64,000 nucleotides of DNA, taken from contig CAVVUN010000002.1 of NCBI GenBank assembly GCA_963751455.1, positions 384,001-448,000 on the forward strand, in the 5' to 3' direction. Below the pieces are notes generated by a model. The model saw nothing but the letters and a program-made list of their open reading frames with translations. It was not told where the DNA came from and searched no databases. The DNA comes from Nitrospirota bacterium. Lineage in GTDB: Bacteria; Nitrospirota; UBA9217. Shown one piece after another: positions 50,175-64,000 of the stretch. A program made the position numbers and the translations under genes. Position 1 is the stretch's first letter, and every line of letters starts with the position of its first letter.

Positions 50175-51018
50175 GGGGTCAAATCTTTCATGTTGACAGA
50201 TTTCCCTCTAATCTAGCCAATAGCGCTCGAACCTTTATGTCTTTATTCACTTTTTCATATAATCGCTTTCGCTCCTGGCTGACCGTGACATAGTCAACTG
50301 CAAATATCTGCCCGATCTGCGGACCTTTTAGTCCTCCTGCCCGGTACAGCAATTCCATTACGATTCGACGTAAGTCACCTTTTTCGATCTTGATGGCTTC
50401 GATATCCTTACCTGTTTCTTTTTTGACTTCTTTAAAAACCTCTTCTGTTGACCTATGACGATATATCTCACCTACTGCCGGCCGCTCCCGGTCATTGGCT
50501 GCCTCTATGTAATTCTCCTTCACCCATGCAATAAACCCCTCTCCCCCCAGAATGCTTTGCCCAATCATGCTTTCTTTAAGCTCTGACTCTTGGGTCATCT
50601 CTGCATAGATCCGCTTCTTATATTCTTTTCGACCCCGATACGTATCTCCACCGTATTCTCCTAGCACCATGGAGTAATCAACGTACCATTCCTTCTTTCT
50701 CGTACTTAAAAAGCCTGGAAGGCTGCTCCACCGATAACGAATAAGATATTTGATTTTCTCCGGTTCCGAAAGTTTTTTCATGGCTTTTATTTTAACCGGA
50801 TTCAAGTGAATGTAGCGGGACAGAACGGAAAGATATTCGTTTCTCTCAACAAGAACGCTCTTGTACCTGCCTTGGTACAGGTGTCCTACGCGGTCGTGGC
50901 GTCGATTGTAATAACCAGTATAGGTTATATTGAACTTGCGCATGAATTCGGAAAGGTTGGCTTTTGGTGTTTCGAGAAGCAGATGGAAATGGTTGGACAT
51001 AAAAACGTAACTGTAAGG
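50175..51018 (-). mobile_element. 5'-truncated Y1/HUH (RAYT-like) transposase with C-terminal HTH
   Basis: YVFMSNHFHLLL HUH, GHLYQGRYKS, RYIHLNPV, YRWSS; end GGGGTCAAATCTT. Confidence 0.85.
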
Positions 51019-51031
51019 CGCGGCTCCTTCC

Positions 51032-51264
51032 GGGGTCGGACCACGCTAAAGTCCTGGTTTTCAAATGATATCGTTCCAATAATAGGCATTTTCGAGGCTT
51101 AAAGCCGCCTTTTCAGGCCCGAAAAGCGGTTTGTAAGACGCAGCATCCTCTCGTAGCGCATAACTGCCATCTGTTCCGTACACATCACGGCCCTTGGCCT
51201 TGATTCCAAGCTTCTCTCTTGTAAAGTTTACGAATAACTCGCTGCCTACGGCAATACTCTCGGA
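51032..51264 (-). mobile_element. 3' fragment of the Y1 transposase element also seen at 46921-47283
   Basis: SESIAVGSELFV..LREDAASY..LSLENAYYWND; end GGGGTCGGACCA. Confidence 0.75.
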
Positions 51265-51572
51265 TGTGCTACTGGAAACAGTGGCGCAGAACAAGGAAGC
51301 GGGTCAGAGAGCTGCTGAAACTCGGCGTGAGCAAGGATAACGCGATATCGGTGGGAATGAGCAGGAAGGGGTACTGGCATCTTGCGAAGACCGAGGCCAT
51401 GAACGTCGGCCTGTCAAATGCATATCTCAAAAGACAAGGGCTTACATCAATCAGAACACTGTGGATCAAGATTTACTATCCGGCTACGGCCCGATAATTT
51501 TCCGCGAATCGCCCGGTGCGGACCCGCACGCCGGGTGGTGTGTGGGGAGGGGCGGCTAAAGACCGCCCCTTA
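51260..51572 (+). pseudogene. 3' remnant of a class C (attC-type) group II intron; last 6 nt displaced to 53407-53412
   Basis: 77-aa maturase tail 62/77 identical to the 59251-60516 protein; short class C DV and DVI. Confidence 0.9.
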
Positions 51573-53406
51573 GTGCGCCTGAAAGTGCGCAAAGTCAGAG
51601 GGGTGCAAGTCCCCTTCAGGTAGACGTTCACCTGCCTGTAACCGACCGTAACTGCGTCGTCGTGAGACGGGGTGGAGAGCAACGGAAGGTGAACCGTCAG
51701 TCCGTAGGATAACGAAATCGATTCGGCCGGTTGTAACGGCGAGCCTGCTGAGGAATGGCGAAGCCCGGACTCTTCGGAAGAAGAGAAGCCTGTCACGCTG
51801 ATGAGCGTGTTAAAGCGATGACAGGGAGCAACAGGTGGTTGGATACGGAACGATGGGAAGTCATTGCACATGAATCAGGGATATCTGTTCCGGCGAGTGA
51901 CCGTGAACAGAAGTCAGAACCTCCATACGAGCGATGAAGCGCTTGTAATGAGCGTGGAGCAAAGGGAGGCAGGAAGGTAGATGAGCAAAGACCATACAGA
52001 GGGAAAGAAACCGACTTCAGTGGAGAATACGCCTAAACCAGTCGGAGAAACAAAAGCCCAACAATGGGCATGGGTGGAACCCACGGTATGGACGGAGCGC
52101 ATGCTGACGGCCCTCGGCAACGGGGTGAAAGGAGGCAGATGGTATAGTTTGATGGATAAGGTACACTCCCCAGGCAATCTCCAAGCCGCGTGGGCGCGAG
52201 TGCGCGCCAACGGTGGAGCAGCAGGAGTGGACCGCCAAAGCATCTCGGCATTTCAAACCAACGCAGAGAAGCATCTGGACGAACTCGAAGAACGCTTAAA
52301 AGGGAACAGGTACCAAACCCAAGCAGTCAAGCGAGTATGGATACCCAAGCCCGGCAGCACCGAAAAGCGTCCGCTCGGCATTCCGGTCGTCAAAGACCGG
52401 ATCGTCCAGACAGCGCTCAGAAACGTCATCGAACCGATATACGAGAACATCTTCGCTGAACAGAGCTACGGCTTTCGACCGGGGCGCGGCTGCAAAGATG
52501 CGCTCCGGCGCGTAGACGAACTTTTGAAGACAGGCTCCACGTGGGTTGTGGACGCTGACATCAAGAGCTACTTTGACAGCATACCCCATGACAAACTCAT
52601 GCGGGAAGTCGAAGAACAGGTGGCGGATGGAAAGGTGCTGGAACTGATAGCCGGATACCTGAAACAGGGGATCATGGACGGACTCACCGAGTGGGAGCCG
52701 GACAAGGGAACTCCGCAGGGCGCGGTCATCAGTCCTCTCCTGGCCAACATATACCTGAATAAAATCGATCATGCGATGCGGGCCAAAGGTTACGAGATGG
52801 TCAGATACGCCGACGATTTCGTCATCCTTTGTCGCGGTGAAGCCGAAGCGCAGCAGGCGCTCGCCACAGTCAGGGACCTTATCGAAGAACGAGGTCTTAC
52901 GCTTCATCCGGAGAAAACCCGGATAGCCGATGCCAAAGAGCGAGGAGGTTTCGACTTTCTCGGATATCACTTCGAGCGCGGCATGCGGTGGCCGCGTAAG
53001 AAGAGTCTCAACAAGCTTAAAGACACTCTTCGCAAGAAGACGATGCGGAAATCGGGCGTGGATATGGCGACCATCATTAAGGACGTTAACAAAAGCCTAC
53101 GAGGTTGGTTTGAATACTTCAAGCAAAGTCACAGGACGACGTTTCCACGAATAGACAGTTGGCTGCGCATGAGATTGCGGAGCATTCTACGGAAGCGTCA
53201 GAAGCGAAGAGGAAGAGGCCGGGGCGCAGATCATCAACGATGGCCGAATGCCTACTTTAGCACTCAAGGACTGTTCACTCTTACAACAGCCCATGAGATA
53301 GCTCGTCAGTCCCGTTGAGGGGCACTGCCGACTGGAGAGCCGGATGCGGGAGATCCGCACGTCCGGTTCGGAGGGAGGGGAGGCCGCAAGCCTTCCCTAC
53401 CCCTAT
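51573..53406 (+). mobile_element. Group II intron (non-C class, AGC triad), inner member of a twintron
   Basis: 5' GTGCG; DV GAGAGCCGGATGCGGGAGATCCGCACGTCCGGTTCGG; 3' CCCTACCCCTAT. Confidence 0.9.
51981..53318 (+). CDS. ltrA: Group II intron reverse transcriptase/maturase, no endonuclease domain
   Basis: GAAGVD, RPLGIP, SYGFRPGR, GTPQG, YADD, FDFLG. Confidence 0.95.
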   Translation: MSKDHTEGKKPTSVENTPKPVGETKAQQWAWVEPTVWTERMLTALGNGVKGGRWYSLMDKVHSPGNLQAAWARVRANGGAAGVDRQSISAFQTNAEKHLDELEERLKGNRYQTQAVKRVWIPKPGSTEKRPLGIPVVKDRIVQTALRNVIEPIYENIFAEQSYGFRPGRGCKDALRRVDELLKTGSTWVVDADIKSYFDSIPHDKLMREVEEQVADGKVLELIAGYLKQGIMDGLTEWEPDKGTPQGAVISPLLANIYLNKIDHAMRAKGYEMVRYADDFVILCRGEAEAQQALATVRDLIEERGLTLHPEKTRIADAKERGGFDFLGYHFERGMRWPRKKSLNKLKDTLRKKTMRKSGVDMATIIKDVNKSLRGWFEYFKQSHRTTFPRIDSWLRMRLRSILRKRQKRRGRGRGADHQRWPNAYFSTQGLFTLTTAHEIARQSR

Positions 53407-53437
53407 CCCGATTGGAAGTACGGTATTCCCAATTTTA

Positions 53438-56400
53438 CTACTCTTTGTGAGATCCTGTAGGATCGCTCTTCTTCATGATGTCCTTCAGGAACCCCTCTGC
53501 TTCTGCGGACCTGCCGTTCTTCATCATGACCAGCGCCTTGATCGAGTTCCTTGCCATGTAATCGCGGATCATAAGGATCGGCACCATGGGCGGATGCTTC
53601 CCCATATCTCCTTCGGGCGTTGCATCGTACTTTCCGTTGATGATCTCCTCGCGGGTCCTGTCCAGCTGCTCGTACCACGCCCTCTTGTCAGCCGGCAGCG
53701 CCTTGAACCAGGCGCTTTTCGAACGCGGATAATTGCGATAGTGGTCCCTGATCGCCGTGAAGGTGACGATGGCGCGCTTCCTCTGCTCGGCTGAATACTT
53801 CGGCATTGAGAACTCTCCCATCTCGGCAAGGATCTCGTCGAGGATGAATTCCTGCAACTGCACCGCGTCATCGGTCTTCTTGTCGCCAAGGAACTTGACC
53901 GTCTTGCCGGTAGTTTCGAGCAAATACCCCCGATAGGCTATCATCGCCTGGCTGGCCGTCTCGTTCTGGAGCAGTGTTTGAGGGATGCCTTCCGGCGTCT
54001 TTTCCTCGTTCCCGATGAAGTTGAATTCCCGAGCGCCCGCCTTCTGTAGAATGTCAATTATCTCCGCATTATTGATGTAGCGTGCGCGGCCGAGCGGCGT
54101 TCTATTCTCGCCCTTGATCAGTCGGTTGAGATCGACACCCTTGGTCCCCGCCAACAGCCGGACCATCTCCGGCCTGTTCTGGTTGATATTATGGACCAGC
54201 GGTGTTTCGCCGTACTCGTCCTCCCGGTTAAGGTCTGGACGACGCGACAGGATCTTCTGCGCCAGATCGAGCCCGTATTTGCCCATCCCGGAGTTGTACC
54301 AGCCCATATGCACCAGTGTCTCGCCCTTGTAGTAGGGAACGTTGACGTCGATCTCCTCGCGGTCCAGAAGCATCATGGCGATCTCATACCCGTAGCGCAA
54401 TCGGGAGTGGCGAATGGCCCTATTCAGGTAGTCCCCCGCCGCTGTCCGCTTGTTCACGTCCAGATCGGACCGCGCAAGGAAGAGCTTGACGATTTCAGGC
54501 TGGTCTTGTTCGATCGCCAGGACCATGGGCGTTATCCCCTCCCCGTCCTCCTTGTTGATGTCGATGTCCTTACGCGCGGCCAGGAGCTTCACGAGCTCGA
54601 TATTGGCCGGGTCCGAGGACAGGCGTCCGGGCTTTGGCTCGAACGCGGCATGCAGCAGCGTCTTTCCGTCCTTTGTGACCGTATCCGTCCGCGCCTTCCG
54701 CTCCAGCAGCACCGCGACGCTCTTCTGATCGCCGAGAGCGACAGCGTGGTACAGGGCCGTCCTGCCGTGCTCGTCAACCGCATCCAGGTTCAGGCCCGGA
54801 GCGCCGAACAGCTCAGCCGCGATGTCTACCCGGTGGTTCTGAAGCGCGCGCATGAGCGGTGTCGCTCTCTCCTTGCCCGGCAGGTTCACGTCGATCGCGG
54901 GACCCGCCAATTTATGAGACCTCTGAAGATGATCGTAAAGCGCCTCTTCACCTATGGCCCAGAAGCGTGACAGCGCCTTCACAAAAAGATAATTGTTATC
55001 CTTGTGCAATATCTTTGGCTTGAAGTAGTTATCGTATTTAAGCTTATCCTGCCAGACAGCAGTGGGAAACACCTGATTCTCCCCGGAAAGATCGGGCGCC
55101 AGTTCATAATTCGATAATTTTTTATGCTCGATATATTTCCCGGAGAGAAGGTCGATCATGTCGCAGCCGTTGGTTTTCACAAAGCAGATCTTGTCGTCCA
55201 GAAACTCGACAAAGCGGTATCTGCCGTTCCTGTCGTAGTCCCCTGAATGCGTCTGCACATGCCGGTGGTAATTCCACAATACAGTACCTTTGGAATCGAA
55301 TGCAAGCAGATAGACTTCCTCGCCCTCTGATTCGTAAAAATTCTTGCCGAAAAAGACCATATTGTTGTAGGACAATACGCCTGTTGTCGAGTAATTGAAT
55401 TGCCTGGCTATCGGTATATTGAGCTTCTTTTCCAGATCCTCCATGGCTACGGTCTTGATCAGGCGGCCCGTATCGATCTGCAGGAAAGAGAGGACATTAT
55501 TTTCCCCAACCACAAGCGTGTCATCCGTCACCGTGTAGCCGTTATAATTGATAAACTGGTCCGTAGTGGTCTTTCCCGGTATTTTATAGGAAAGTATCTC
55601 TCTGCCTGTCCACTTGTCAATGGCGCTGAAAACATCCGGGGCGTCTTTCATACGTTTTAGAAAATAGAGGCGGTCCCGGCCAAAGATCGGCTCTCCCCGG
55701 TCAATTTCCCTGTTCCACAGGACCTCGGGATTCTTGACAGGGGCAAACGGACCTTTCTTCTTCGAGGATTTAATTTCGGTATTTTCCGGCTCTCGCCACG
55801 TAAACTGATCCTTCACCTGCGGCATGAACGGCAGATCGCTTTTCAGGAACAGGACAGATTGCGTGTGCTTTTCGTTGTAGCGGTTCTTCGCTACCATGTA
55901 GATCATGTCGGGAGATAACTGCACGATGTGATGAAGCTCCGATTCGACAGTCTCGTAGGGCTCCTCGATGCTTACGACAGGGGCTGCCGATCTGTCAAGG
56001 ATGACGATCCGGTCATTTGCCTTGCTTACCTGGGAAATGGTCGAATCCTTTATCTCGCCCGTGACCAGGGCGATGAGCACGTTTCCCCAGAGTGGCCTGA
56101 CATACTGGACATCTCCCTGGGCCACCATTTCCGAACCGAAGGACACGAAGAAGCCCGAACCGTTTCTTCCTCTGACCGAGGAAGTTCCTTCCATAACGCC
56201 TCAGCATCCCGTATAATTTCTCGTTATGCTGATTCCCATGTCAGGCAGGCTGACCGGTCCTTCTCCTTCATTCGGAAACTGGATCTGCTCGCCCAGTTGC
56301 TCGTGGTTGTGGTACTTGACGAATTCAACGCGCCCAAGGGCTTCAATATTTCCTTTTTCAACTGCGGTGAGGCTCGCCTCCGTGAATCCCGGATCAGGTT

Positions 56401-56800
56401 TGTACCAGGACTGCGACGTAAAATAAGAGAACAGGTCTGCGGAAGAGAATGTCCTGCCGTGCTGCGCATAGATCTCGTTGCGTAGCAGTCTCAGGCGCGG
56501 GTAATCAAGCAGGATCAGTCGCCATAGCTCGAGCCGACGCTGCAGTTGTCCCCGGAGATATTGATAAACCGCCTCTTGTTCCTGTTCTTCCAAGCCGCCT
56601 ATTTTTACATAAACAGGTCCCCTCGCCTCAAGGGCTTTCAGGGCTTCCTGGACATACGTGTGCAGTTTTTGATTCGAATCAATAGGTTCAGACTGAGAAG
56701 CAAAAGCAGGGGAAGGATAAGTAAGGAAGGAAAACATTGCCGGCACACATATGATCAAGCACAACCAGATATGCAACACACTAAGCGATCTAGATAACAT
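53438..56800 (-). CDS. Secreted YARHG + beta-propeller-like + ankyrin protein with one in-frame TGA (candidate selenoprotein, or two ORFs 56201-56800 and 53438-56194)
   Basis: Signal peptide, LRNEIYAQHG..SWY, GC*G junction in frame, G..LW repeats, GRTAL/G.TPL ankyrin repeats. Confidence 0.7.
56166..56184 (-). promoter_or_regulatory. Candidate bacterial SECIS hairpin
   Basis: CUUCCUC-GGUCA-GAGGAAG starting 16 nt after the in-frame UGA (56201-56203). Confidence 0.45.
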
Positions 56801-56853
56801 GACACCTCCGTAAGTTTGAGTGTGGAGATCTTAGGATATCATACTTATGCCTC

Positions 56854-56912
56854 TACGAACGACGAGCTGAGCCCCGCGCCGTAGAGCGCGGGACTCGAAC
56901 GACTTGTTAAGT
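56854..56912 (-). other. attC site
   Basis: ACTTAAC-AAGTC-GTTCGAG..CCCGCGC..GCGCGGG..CTCAGC-TCGTC-GTTCGTA; upstream stop TAA lies in R''. Confidence 0.85.
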
Positions 56913-58423: not shown

Positions 58424-58484
58424 CTAGAACACGCGAGTGACCTGCCGGGCAGCTTCATCGCCCGGCCTGTGTCGAATCGCTGGT
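58424..58484 (-). other. attC site split by a group II intron (remaining R'' bases at 60595-60599)
   Basis: + strand CTAGAAC..GCCGGGC/GCCCGGC stem..TGGT|intron|TAGAA rebuilds GTTAGAA. Confidence 0.85.
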
Positions 58485-60594
58485 GTACGCCCGGCACGAA
58501 CGTGAACTTATGGGGTGCAAGTCCTCTGTACGAGAACCAGAAGTAGAGTAGCACAAGTACTAGCCCATGGCAAGGGCGGAAGGGTGAACAGGGCGGAAGG
58601 GTGACCGACCGTCTGGAGGAAGCCTAAGGCAATGGTTCGACAAGCTCACCACGCGAGCCAGAGCCTGTCCTGAGCGGAGTCGAAGGAAACAGAAACCGCA
58701 TACAAGGCTTAGCCCTCGGGCGAGTTGGCACCACATGACGAAGCCCATTGGTTCAGGGGGTAGGGTAAATGCGGCGCAATACAATTATCCTTGTCCTCCT
58801 GACCCTCGCCCTCAGGGAGAGGGACCGGGTGAGGGAGGGCCGCTTAACGGAAATTCTTATCCGGGGAGATCTGCACGCCGTGCGATAGGATCGTCATGAG
58901 AAGAATCCGGGACGGGTCAACCCGGCAAACAAGGCCCAGGCATATCCGTTTGCTGTTAACGGATATGAGTTCCCCTTTCAGGGAAAACACGAATACTACA
59001 GCATCTCACGACGAACCCCTGTAGCGCCTTCTCTGGAAACAGAGACGGTGAGCGCGTACCCTGCACTCGCGATTCCACTCGTAAGCGCTGGGCACAAGCA
59101 GAAGTCAGCAGATGGCATAGTAGTCCCGTTTTATAGGGACGAAGGCCGGAACGCGGAAAGGAGAAAGGGCATTCCATAAGCTTCGGGAGGTGATGAGTCC
59201 GACAAGGATGAGCCGTATCCGGGCGCGTTATGGAGAAATAGCCCACTCGAATGACCACAGTAGAAGAAGTTGTAAGCAGTGAGAACATGCAGCAGGCATG
59301 GCAGCGGGTCAAGGCGAACAAGGGAGCGCCCGGCATCGACAATATGTCGATAAAGGACTATCCCGAGTTTGCAAGGGCCAACTGGCCGAGGATCAAGGCC
59401 TCCTTGCTGGACGGGACGTATAATCCCACTCCGGTCAAGAGGGTCGAGATTCCAAAAGACAACGGAGGTGTCCGGCTTTTGGGCATCCCCACGGTTTCCG
59501 ATCGCGTAGTACAGCAAGCGATCACCCAAGTGCTCGTCCCCGTCTTCGATCCCCATTTTTCCGAATCGAGCTACGGGTACAGACCGGGTCGTTCGGCGCA
59601 TCAGGCCGTAAAGAAGGTGGTTGAGCTGATCAACAAAGGATACCGCTACGCAGTTGACATCGATCTTGCAAAATTCTTCGACAACGTCAATTGGGACGTC
59701 CTTATGAGCCGGGTAGCCCGGCGCGTCAGGGACAAAGGCATCCTCCAACTGATCGGCAGATACCTTCGGGCGGGAGTCGTCGTAAACGGCAGGCTTACCC
59801 GTACCACCAAAGGCGTTCCGCAGGGCGGTCCACTTTCGCCGCTCCTGTCGAACATCCTTCTGGACGATCTCGATAAGGAACTAGAGAAACGTGGGCATCA
59901 GTTCTGCCGGTACGCAGATGATCTAATCATTCTGGTAAAGTCAAAGCGGGCCGGAGAACGAGTGATGCAGAGCGTCACCAGTTTCCTTGAAAAGAACCTC
60001 AAGGTGCAGGTGAACAGGGACAAGAGCAAGGTGGGAAGCGCGGAGTCCAGTATATTCCTGAGCTTTACGTTCCATCTCAAGAGGCCCACCGTCTCCCGGA
60101 AGGCGTTTGTAAACTTCAAGAATGAACTCAAGCGTCTTACCGGCCGCAGTTGGGGTGTATCCATGAAGCATCGCTACGGAAAAATCCAGACCTACTTACA
60201 GGGCTGGATGAATTATTTCGGTATCGGCATGAGATACAATGATGCGGTCGAGCTGGATCATCGTCTCCGCCGTCGGATTCGGATGTGCTACTGGAAACAG
60301 TGGCGCCGGACGAGGAAACGGGTCGGAGAACTGATGAAACTCGGTGTTGGTGAGCGACCTGCGGTAACAGCGGGACTGAGCAGGAAGAGCTATTGGCATC
60401 TTGCAAAGACCGAAGCCATCAATGTCGGCCTGTCCAATGCCTATCTCAAAGAGCAAGGGCTTACATCAATCAGAACACTGTGGATCAAGATTCACCATCC
60501 GGCCACGGCCCGATGATTTCCGCGAACCGCCTGGTGCGGACCCGCATGCCAGGTGGTGTGGGGGCTGGGGGAGAAAATCCCCCGGCTACCCGAT
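58485..60594 (+). mobile_element. Class C attC-targeting group II intron
   Basis: 5' GTACGCCCGGCA; DV GAACCGCCTGGTGCGGACCCGCATGCCAGGTGGTGT; 3' CTACCCGAT; antisense to cassettes. Confidence 0.92.
59251..60516 (+). CDS. ltrA: Group IIC intron reverse transcriptase/maturase
   Basis: NKGAPGID, RLLGIPT, GVPQGGPLSPLL, YADD, WKQW. Confidence 0.96.
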   Translation: MTTVEEVVSSENMQQAWQRVKANKGAPGIDNMSIKDYPEFARANWPRIKASLLDGTYNPTPVKRVEIPKDNGGVRLLGIPTVSDRVVQQAITQVLVPVFDPHFSESSYGYRPGRSAHQAVKKVVELINKGYRYAVDIDLAKFFDNVNWDVLMSRVARRVRDKGILQLIGRYLRAGVVVNGRLTRTTKGVPQGGPLSPLLSNILLDDLDKELEKRGHQFCRYADDLIILVKSKRAGERVMQSVTSFLEKNLKVQVNRDKSKVGSAESSIFLSFTFHLKRPTVSRKAFVNFKNELKRLTGRSWGVSMKHRYGKIQTYLQGWMNYFGIGMRYNDAVELDHRLRRRIRMCYWKQWRRTRKRVGELMKLGVGERPAVTAGLSRKSYWHLAKTEAINVGLSNAYLKEQGLTSIRTLWIKIHHPATAR

Positions 60595-60603
60595 TAGAAA
60601 TCT

Positions 60604-63004: not shown

Positions 63005-64000
63005 ATGCAACCTATACCCAAAGATATTCAGGTTAAATTTGATGACATGCTGAAACAGCGGAATGTCCCTCTGTTCTCCCGGGCCGATTACCGTAAGTGG
63101 CTTCTATACTTTCTTGACTTTCGTGCCAAATATCCGCTTCCTGATGCCAAACCGGATCAAGTGAAGCTGTTCGCCGACAAGCTGCGGTCGAAGAATCAAA
63201 CCATCGTGCAAGTAGAGCAGGCTGCGGATGCGATTTCGCTGTTCTTCGCGTCTCAATCGACAAAAAGCACCGGAAGTGCAGGTCTTAAACCCATCCCCCT
63301 CTCCGTCTTCCCCTTGAAGGGGGAGATGAGTGAGCGGACAGCCTTCCACTTGAAGGGGGCGATGAATGAGAGGCTAGTGTCTCCCCCAAAAAGAGAGGCG
63401 AATAAGAGGGAGGTCTACCTGGCCACCGGGCAAAGGGTGTCCACAGCGCCTTTGCCTCCGGTAAAATACGATCGAGCCCGGGAAGCAGAATTGAAGAAGG
63501 AATCCGGCATGGTCTGCGAACCGCCGGCCTCTTCCATGCCCTTCGCACCGCGGCTCAGAAGCGGTAAGCAATACGATGAATGGCGTTGTCTTCGAAAGAC
63601 CGCGTCTCCGGCATGGGACAATGTAATAGCGCTGCTTGCTGACGAGATCAAGATCCGGCATTACTCCCGGAAGACGCTTAAGCACTACGCTGACTGGATC
63701 CGCAAGTTTCAGAGCTACTTGAGACATAAAGACCCTGCGGAGCTGTCGTCAAAAGATGTTAAGGCGTATCTCACCTTTCTCGCGGTGGATTGCAAAGTGT
63801 CTTCATCGACGCAGAATCAGGCTTTCAACGCCTTGTTGTTTCTGTACCGGCACGTTCTCAAAAAAGATTTCGGAATCCATAACGACATCCCGCGCGCGAA
63901 GAAATCAAATTACATCCCTGTGGTTCTTTCCCGGCAGGAAATCGATGCAGTTTTGCAAAATCTCCACCATCCGTTCCGGCTCGTTGCTCAACTCCAGTAC
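63005..64000 (+). CDS. intI: Integron integrase with long N-terminal extension (3'-partial)
   Basis: Open 332 codons to the edge; RHYSRKTLKHY..WIRKF, FLAV..KVSSSTQNQAFNALLFLYRHVL, PVVLSRQEI; divergent from the attC array; catalytic part lies outside the window. Confidence 0.9.
   Translation, partial: MQPIPKDIQVKFDDMLKQRNVPLFSRADYRKWLLYFLDFRAKYPLPDAKPDQVKLFADKLRSKNQTIVQVEQAADAISLFFASQSTKSTGSAGLKPIPLSVFPLKGEMSERTAFHLKGAMNERLVSPPKREANKREVYLATGQRVSTAPLPPVKYDRAREAELKKESGMVCEPPASSMPFAPRLRSGKQYDEWRCLRKTASPAWDNVIALLADEIKIRHYSRKTLKHYADWIRKFQSYLRHKDPAELSSKDVKAYLTFLAVDCKVSSSTQNQAFNALLFLYRHVLKKDFGIHNDIPRAKKSNYIPVVLSRQEIDAVLQNLHHPFRLVAQLQY

Follow-up and report, generated by a model that had tools for sequence, protein, structure and literature searches.

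Mammalian thioredoxin reductase carries a C-terminal Gly-Cys-Sec-Gly tail (where Sec is selenocysteine), and among bacterial selenoproteins both SaoB and the selenocysteine-containing TonB-dependent receptor are, to judge from their family names, located outside the cytoplasm. Here, we have examined a gene on the minus strand of a 64,000-nucleotide stretch of DNA (the window: contig CAVVUN010000002.1, positions 384,001 to 448,000, of assembly GCA_963751455.1) from a bacterium of the Nitrospirota. Its codon 200 is an in-frame UGA in the context Gly-Cys-UGA-Gly, and we refer to it as the UGA-200 gene. To judge from its sequence, this is probably a real and new selenoprotein family, with an integron origin and the unusual architecture of a probably exported scaffold, and served by decoding machinery that is already known.

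In terms of the motif, the closest described proteins are SaoC (NF040734), SaoL (NF040728), HgcA (NF040863), the KCU-star family (NF033934), MbdU (NF045648) and the Csac_0668 family, which, as far as their family descriptions go, share with the UGA-200 gene an adjacent Cys-Sec pair, a UGA with a downstream hairpin and the existence of Cys-Cys homologs. No NCBIfam sequence match connects these CU-motif proteins (U denoting Sec) with ours, however, which differs in its YARHG, all-beta and ankyrin make-up and its length of 1120 aa. SaoB, an ABC (ATP-binding cassette) substrate-binding protein with a CUxxT motif (NF040727), and the TonB-dependent receptor with an FCYXU motif (NF049945) are, again by their descriptions, examples of Sec placed on a likely exported binding or transport protein without a thioredoxin fold, as here, but their sequences are unrelated to ours and the gene studied here sits in an integron array rather than a transporter operon. 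Proteins of the YARHG family (PF13308; PMC3355149) resemble ours in combining this domain with a signal peptide, although the domain is usually C-terminal there and is N-terminal here; YARHG is considered an extracellular domain in that source, where a role in peptidoglycan binding is hypothesised.

The first-pass annotation of this DNA had pointed to thioredoxin reductase as a parallel for the Gly-Cys-Sec-Gly motif. The four residues are indeed the same and a vicinal Se-S bond is plausible here, but they occupy an internal hairpin loop (residues 198-201 of 1120) in a protein lacking FAD and NADPH domains, and the pair has been lost in 4 of 10 homologs, so we consider the likeness a coincidence of motif. 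Comparison with catalogued selenoproteins was equally negative: the NCBIfam selenoprotein models gave no match at E <= 0.1, and Table 1 of the 2026 catalogue of 119 families (PMC13188914) includes some CU motifs and none with YARHG, ankyrin or propeller domains. These three are also absent from the main texts of PMC13188914, PMC13326102 and PMC12013277. A search of literature listings and the openings of abstracts for selenoproteins associated with YARHG, integrons or ankyrin repeats, the scope of which did not extend to the BSepDB family table or the deep-Sep supplements, found no such protein, and no Sec-containing YARHG protein was found in the literature searched.

The in-frame TGA and its column in homologs

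Two open reading frames (ORFs), 56201-56800 (199 aa) and 53438-56194 (918 aa), share one minus-strand frame and are separated by TGA-GGC-GTT only; both this shared frame and the G-C-TGA-G-V-M context had been recognised in the first-pass annotation and are borne out by ORF analysis. When the TGA is read as U, the result is a chain of 1120 residues with a lone U at residue 200, in the context G-C-U-G-V-M. The features on which this reading is built are as follows.

53438-56800, minus strand: single read-through gene encoding 1120 aa, its one UGA being codon 200, based on the frame and on an equal-length ortholog with TGA at the same column
56198-56209, minus strand: Gly-Cys-UGA-Gly motif, residues 198-201, with the TGA at 56203-56201; predicted to form the loop that caps a beta-hairpin, from sequence, alignments and a model (strands 190-197 and 204-211)
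56166-56184, minus strand: hairpin resembling a selenocysteine insertion sequence (SECIS), with a 7-bp stem and a GGUCA loop 23 nt past the UGA, from the minimum-energy fold and pair probabilities; identical in genome G030 and in the run X1 and run X2 contigs
56806-56810, minus strand: GGAGG, Shine-Dalgarno-like, just 5' of the first ATG; the ortholog has GAGGAGG

Evidence for read-through comes from the ortholog in G030, a genome from another genus of the same family, which has TGA at the same column followed by the identical 19-nt hairpin. The two proteins are identical at 816 of 1123 columns (73%) and the genes at 78% of their DNA. Between host and G030 the ratio of nonsynonymous to synonymous substitution (dN/dS) is 0.24 upstream of the TGA and 0.10-0.26 downstream, at dS 0.4-2.2, which indicates purifying selection on both halves. 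An independent contig from run X2 spans the TGA and the hairpin and carries six differences, none of which touches either element; a contig from run X1 also agrees at both, with 29 flanking letters on one side only. Coverage from run X3 includes the hairpin and leaves out the TGA, and runs X5 and X6 contributed nothing here. Both TGA and hairpin are therefore kept in the ortholog and in an independent contig, as the first-pass annotation had expected of a genuine selenoprotein. That annotation had also regarded a nonsense mutation as an equally simple explanation, and it is true that a pseudogene or a sequencing error in a GCCG gene needs a single change (TGC to TGA) and that indel-like split genes occur in both the host assembly and G030. 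The conservation of the TGA at this level of DNA divergence and in the independent contig, the selection on the downstream half and the fact that seven proteins stop at one place largely refute this caveat, and make such an origin barely credible.

A first homolog search recovered six proteins including our own, three of which have GCCG at the column within one uninterrupted ORF; P0003 and P0005 begin at the very Met that opens the downstream ORF. The upstream ORF recovered seven proteins (our own and that of G030 included) with 59-87% identity, every one of which ends at ITRNYTGC, and a profile search over 1.84 billion representatives recovered ten. With cluster members added, ten non-TGA clusters cover the TGA column. 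All ten are single ORFs, six have Cys-Cys (GCCG) and none has Trp or Arg at the column, an outcome that favours the selenoprotein proposal of the first-pass annotation. This comparison used protein sequences alone, and one of the GCCG homologs, WP_183360858.1, belongs to Geomonas limicola. In the tree, the TGA clade has support of 100/100 and is the sole clade with an ankyrin tail. We took the criteria for a new selenoprotein family from PMC1088965 and PMC13188914. They ask for the TGA in at least two different sequences, which we find in the host and G030 and additionally in the run X2 contig, and for its alignment with Cys in at least two homologs, which we find in the six clusters mentioned; by the criteria of PMC1088965, it qualifies as a probable new selenoprotein family.

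The same comparisons bear on whether there are two translationally coupled genes here, one for an exported YARHG protein of 199 aa whose last residues are Gly-Cys and one for a cytoplasmic protein of 918 aa whose first residue is Met203. At least three database records are annotated in this manner, and the TGA clade retains Met203, with a GAGG 4 nt upstream of it. The non-TGA homologs are fused in all ten cases, however, a break at this point would split the predicted beta-hairpin, and the GAGG consists of the UGA-GGC codons themselves; the two codons that separate TGA from ATG vary at one silent site only (G030 and run X2 contig). In all cases observed the stop is TGA and coincides with the Cys column. 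The second ORF, although it lacks a signal peptide, retains a Cys pair that it shares with the exported homologs. We consider a two-gene arrangement very improbable. An alternative code in which TGA stands for Trp or Gly has practically no likelihood, since TGA is an ordinary stop in the host, where it ends 637 of 1,697 long ORFs, and Trp is seen at the column in no homolog. Taken together, the fusion of the homologs, purifying selection, the conserved TGA, the structural model and the normal use of TGA as a stop elsewhere make sequencing error, pseudogene and two-gene readings unlikely, and we regard the UGA-200 gene as very probably a single read-through gene.

The downstream hairpin and the decoding machinery of the host

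The hairpin starts 16 nt past the TGA and is made up of a stem at 56184-56178, the GGUCA loop at 56177-56173 and the returning stem at 56172-56166, so that coordinates and folding agree with its initial description as a 7-bp hairpin at this position. It is part of the minimum-energy fold, with pair probabilities of 0.98-1.0 in the ensemble, and a competing hairpin formed by GGAAG, which had been raised as a caveat, is negligible in the fold model. A second caveat, that the loop lies 5 nt farther from the UGA than in fdhF, also falls away, since the distance of 23 nt lies inside the host's own range: GGUCN loops occur 18-32 nt past the UGA in host FdhA, SelD, a rhodanese and a TsoC-like gene. 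Published criteria for bacterial SECIS elements (PMC13188914) call for a loop of 3-9 nt starting with GG or GU, a stem of 4-16 bp, a distance of 16-37 nt past the UGA and a minimum free energy of at most -7.5 kcal/mol; the hairpin has a 5-nt GGUCA loop, 7 bp, 23 nt and -17 kcal/mol. Rfam has no family over it.

How much weight such a structure can bear depends on the rule applied. The loose SECIS rule is satisfied by 54,200 of 199,132 genomic TGAs (27%); a hairpin by itself therefore means little, and a genome-wide scan with this rule as a selenoprotein finder was rejected as it gave no discrimination (492 of 3,060 coding-like TGAs retained). With a loop starting with GG or GU on at least six Watson-Crick pairs, an intermediate rule, the numbers fall to 1,073 of 199,132 TGAs and 7 of the 637 TGA ends of long ORFs. 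A strict rule of the host's own type, in which a GGUCN pentaloop sits on at least six Watson-Crick pairs, leaves 14 of 199,132 TGAs and none of the 637 long-ORF ends; these 14 sites are the UGA-200 gene, FdhA, SelD, the rhodanese, the TsoC-like gene, an out-of-frame duplicate of the rhodanese site and eight that we judge to be chance. When codons were redrawn synonymously with the peptide fixed, a strict hairpin arose in 9 of 50,000 draws and an intermediate one in 540.

The host appears equipped to decode such a codon. Following up a check proposed in the first-pass annotation, we found selA and selB above cut-off and a canonical tRNA-Sec with G73, along with selD, also above cut-off and carrying an in-frame TGA of its own. 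Across the family selA is present in 55 of 64 genomes, and G030 has selA, selD and tRNA-Sec, with selA and selD in several frames. There is also a second tRNA with a UCA anticodon at G000:C13:3947-4041 (minus strand; locus L031), with U before CCA and an 8-bp acceptor stem. These features fit the selC* tRNA-Cys, which has U73 and a UCA anticodon and has been shown in E. coli to insert Cys at a Sec codon (PMC5389517). Matches to selC*-like tRNAs occur in 21 of 63 relatives, with UCA and U kept in five of five inspected. In the vicinity of the host's selC*-like tRNA lie genes for YedF, a Cys-type rhodanese, a double-cubane reductase and a selenium-associated LysR regulator.

This second tRNA means that UGA-200 could be read through mostly as Cys, which would produce a GCCG loop as in the homologs. 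The fit of the tRNA, its spread among relatives and a frameshifted selD in the host assembly all speak for this, but the canonical G73 tRNA-Sec is present too, G030 (71% complete) has the TGA gene and tRNA-Sec and no selC*-like match, and a conserved hairpin of the host's type is what SelB needs. We therefore consider Cys as the predominant residue to be improbable, and selenocysteine likely to be the main residue at UGA-200, a judgement that draws on the conserved TGA, the hairpin and the complement of decoding genes.

Several observations weigh against selenocysteine at a read-through UGA-200 and temper its interpretation. The GGUCN rule was picked after the data had been seen, the loops differ in other host selenoprotein candidates, and the complete codon identity across the hairpin (8/8) is weak evidence, the ankyrin part having longer identical runs. 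Two genomes and the contigs of two runs give the codon after GC as DNA, and it is inferred for the other five upstream proteins; P0005/P0014 and P0009-P0012 are known as protein only. Four of the ten non-TGA homologs lack the Cys pair (GGGG, GMAG, GAGG and GCF), which makes the pair dispensable within the family, and the tree is unrooted, with its deeper branches unresolved. Met203 is kept in three of three TGA-clade sequences, so that internal re-initiation may take place. Host selD is split over two frames in this assembly (locus L013, G000:C2:129959-130880); an assembly error is the likely cause, given that selD is intact in five of five well-assembled relatives and that other split genes in the host assembly and in G030 look like indel errors. 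Finally, the selC*-like tRNA could place Cys at UGA-200 at times.

Further candidates were observed in the host. In-frame TGAs at L018-L023, L025 and L026 fall in a multi-domain rhodanese, a TsoC-like gene, FdhA, three DsbA-like genes, one OS_HP2-like gene and one that is DsrE-like by eye; among 13 candidates in total, L027-L030 were dropped as they have no NCBIfam family, and L026 is without a match and unconfirmed. Another, L024 (G000:C15:1643823-1645295, minus strand), encodes a flavoprotein resembling dihydrolipoyl dehydrogenase, in which TGA takes the second position of a centre of the CxxxxC type; a 7-bp hairpin follows this TGA at a distance of 26 nt. Of two relatives aligned over their full length, G018 has one TGA (position unconfirmed) and G062 none, and neither 'dihydrolipo' nor 'CxxxxU' is found in PMC13188914; from its sequence, L024 is possibly another uncatalogued selenoprotein.

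Protein architecture and integron setting

The predicted protein can be divided into five regions.

56699-56800, minus strand: likely signal peptide, about residues 1-34, a hydrophobic stretch followed by A-F-A; from hydropathy only, and the same in the homologs tested
56327-56497, minus strand: YARHG domain, residues 102-158 (PF13308, E 2e-14, 53.7 bits against a gathering threshold of 27)
54920-56197, minus strand: all-beta region, about residues 202-627, the C-terminal part BamB/PQQ-propeller-like, with a second Cys pair at 539/546; from a low-confidence model and PQQ_2 matches in homologs
54047-54904, minus strand: ankyrin repeats, about residues 633-918, from Pfam; in the TGA clade only and absent from the aligned non-TGA homologs
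53438-54046, minus strand: C-terminal region conserved in the TGA clade, of no known family (no Pfam or Atlas match) and 74% identical in G030

Hydropathy places the hydrophobic N-terminus in the first ORF alone, as the first-pass annotation had it. A model of the motif domain, built with C in place of U (mean predicted local distance difference test, pLDDT, 74), positions G-C-U-G in a loop joining two strands that belong to a single continuous beta domain. This domain gave no Foldseek match at E <= 0.001, and its best Z in structure comparison was 6.4; the BamB matches found with Foldseek came from a model with a pLDDT of 58 and have a TM score of about 0.18. No solved structure matched by sequence, and Atlas matches were below 0.9 or absent. 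The Cys pair at 539/546 is common to the nearest homologs. The best score to the Legionella Dot/Icm ankyrin effector model was 53 bits against a cut-off of 600, which reflects generic ankyrin similarity only. A match in G043 (L012:511-2112) is restricted to the ankyrin repeats, where it is 49% identical to the tail of the UGA-200 protein, and these repeats are fused there to a membrane-type C-terminus, which suggests shuffling of the ankyrin block between genes.

The gene lies in an integron array, the relevant parts of which are listed below.

63629-64000, plus strand: integron integrase, divergent from the array and running past the window end; TIGR02249 above cut-off when two same-frame pieces are summed
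56854-56912, minus strand: attC of the preceding cassette, from an attC scan, the UGA-200 cassette starting at its right end
53413-53417, minus strand: inferred first bases of the UGA-200 cassette's own attC, read from the sequence and severed by intron insertion
51260-53412, plus strand: 3' remnant of a group II intron (51260-51572 and 53407-53412) whose last domain contains a second group II intron (51573-53406) that is complete, a twintron; from sequence analysis

The first-pass annotation had described the gene as cassette-borne. Its position in an array beside an integrase and downstream of an attC supports this, as does the attC scan, which, in accordance with the same annotation, found no attC inside 53438-56800 and thus none between the two ORFs. 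The cassette's own attC is not intact, however. Group II intron DNA on the opposite strand begins about 25 nt past the stop of the UGA-200 gene, next to bases 53413-53417. From the parallel case of the intron at about 58440-60595, we take this to be an insertion into the attC, the remainder of which could not be located. With its attC interrupted, the present mobility of the cassette is doubtful, and it is probably now immobilised in the host genome. The arrangement resembles the group IIC-attC intron cassette (PMC3001079) in that a gene is cut off from its attC by an intron of opposite orientation, and differs in that the outer intron here is a 3' remnant containing a nested intron and the remaining attC was not found.

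Past mobility is consistent with the distribution of the gene, which is present in 2 of 64 family genomes, the same two being the only ones among 401 drawn from the phylum. In G030 it has different neighbours and an attC-like site before it; that genome (71% complete) gave no integrase above cut-off and no attC after the gene copy. Rarity and differing neighbours fit a mobile cassette. A search for related loci in genome, metagenome and viral collections found no relatives, and a degenerate DNA pattern returned 65 metagenome loci, none of them homologous by tblastn.

Elsewhere in the window, an IS200-like transposase gene (50188-51000) adjoins the nested introns, and two tandem 36-nt repeats (63307-63378) lie just upstream of the integrase match. 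The two flanks of the plus-strand group II intron at about 58440-60595 together restore an attC-like hairpin. Introns of this type may contain outward-facing promoters (PMC3001079), which in this case could drive downstream cassettes including the UGA-200 gene; a promoter scan was at chance level only.

Possible function and significance

If the UGA-200 gene is decoded as in other bacteria, SelB and Sec-tRNA would bind the GGUCA loop, suppress termination and insert Sec at codon 200, and in a cell that does not decode Sec the product would be a 199-aa YARHG fragment. The full chain would then be exported by way of its predicted signal peptide, and in the periplasm Cys199 and Sec200 may form a vicinal Se-S ring within an exposed, Gly-flanked loop. 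Such a loop might respond to redox state or bind a soft metal, as would suit a binding protein or a scaffold. Catalysis is less likely, given that the Cys pair is missing from 4 of 10 homologs and that there is no redox fold. We tentatively propose, from the predicted fold and with somewhat more doubt than confidence, that the protein functions as an envelope binding protein with a redox- or metal-responsive surface loop. The Cys-to-Sec change would have occurred in one branch of the GCCG family, the same branch that bears the ankyrin tail; we favour this direction because Cys forms are more widespread and because it follows a trend described in PMC13188914.

A bolder view, which we think rather unlikely, is that the UGA-200 protein is the first of its kind, a mobile YARHG/propeller/ankyrin envelope scaffold in which UGA-200 acts as a selenium-gated switch, giving the Cys-Sec form when selenium is available, the Cys-Cys form by way of a selC*-like tRNA and a short YARHG piece when there is neither. 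Were this so, the Cys-to-Sec conversion and the new SECIS element would have arisen inside the integron cassette pool.

Annotation splits this probable new family, which is missing from the 119-family catalogue, into two genes. The catalogued families consist for the most part of redox enzymes or thioredoxin-like proteins, whereas the UGA-200 protein has the appearance of a large exported interaction scaffold. With a Sec gene and its putative SECIS carried in an integron array, the product that is made would depend on the decoding machinery of the host. The family also has Sec, Cys-Cys and Cys-free forms at one and the same loop, the Cys form being found in Geomonas limicola, and so may allow the question of what Sec adds to a protein beyond classic catalysis to be addressed.

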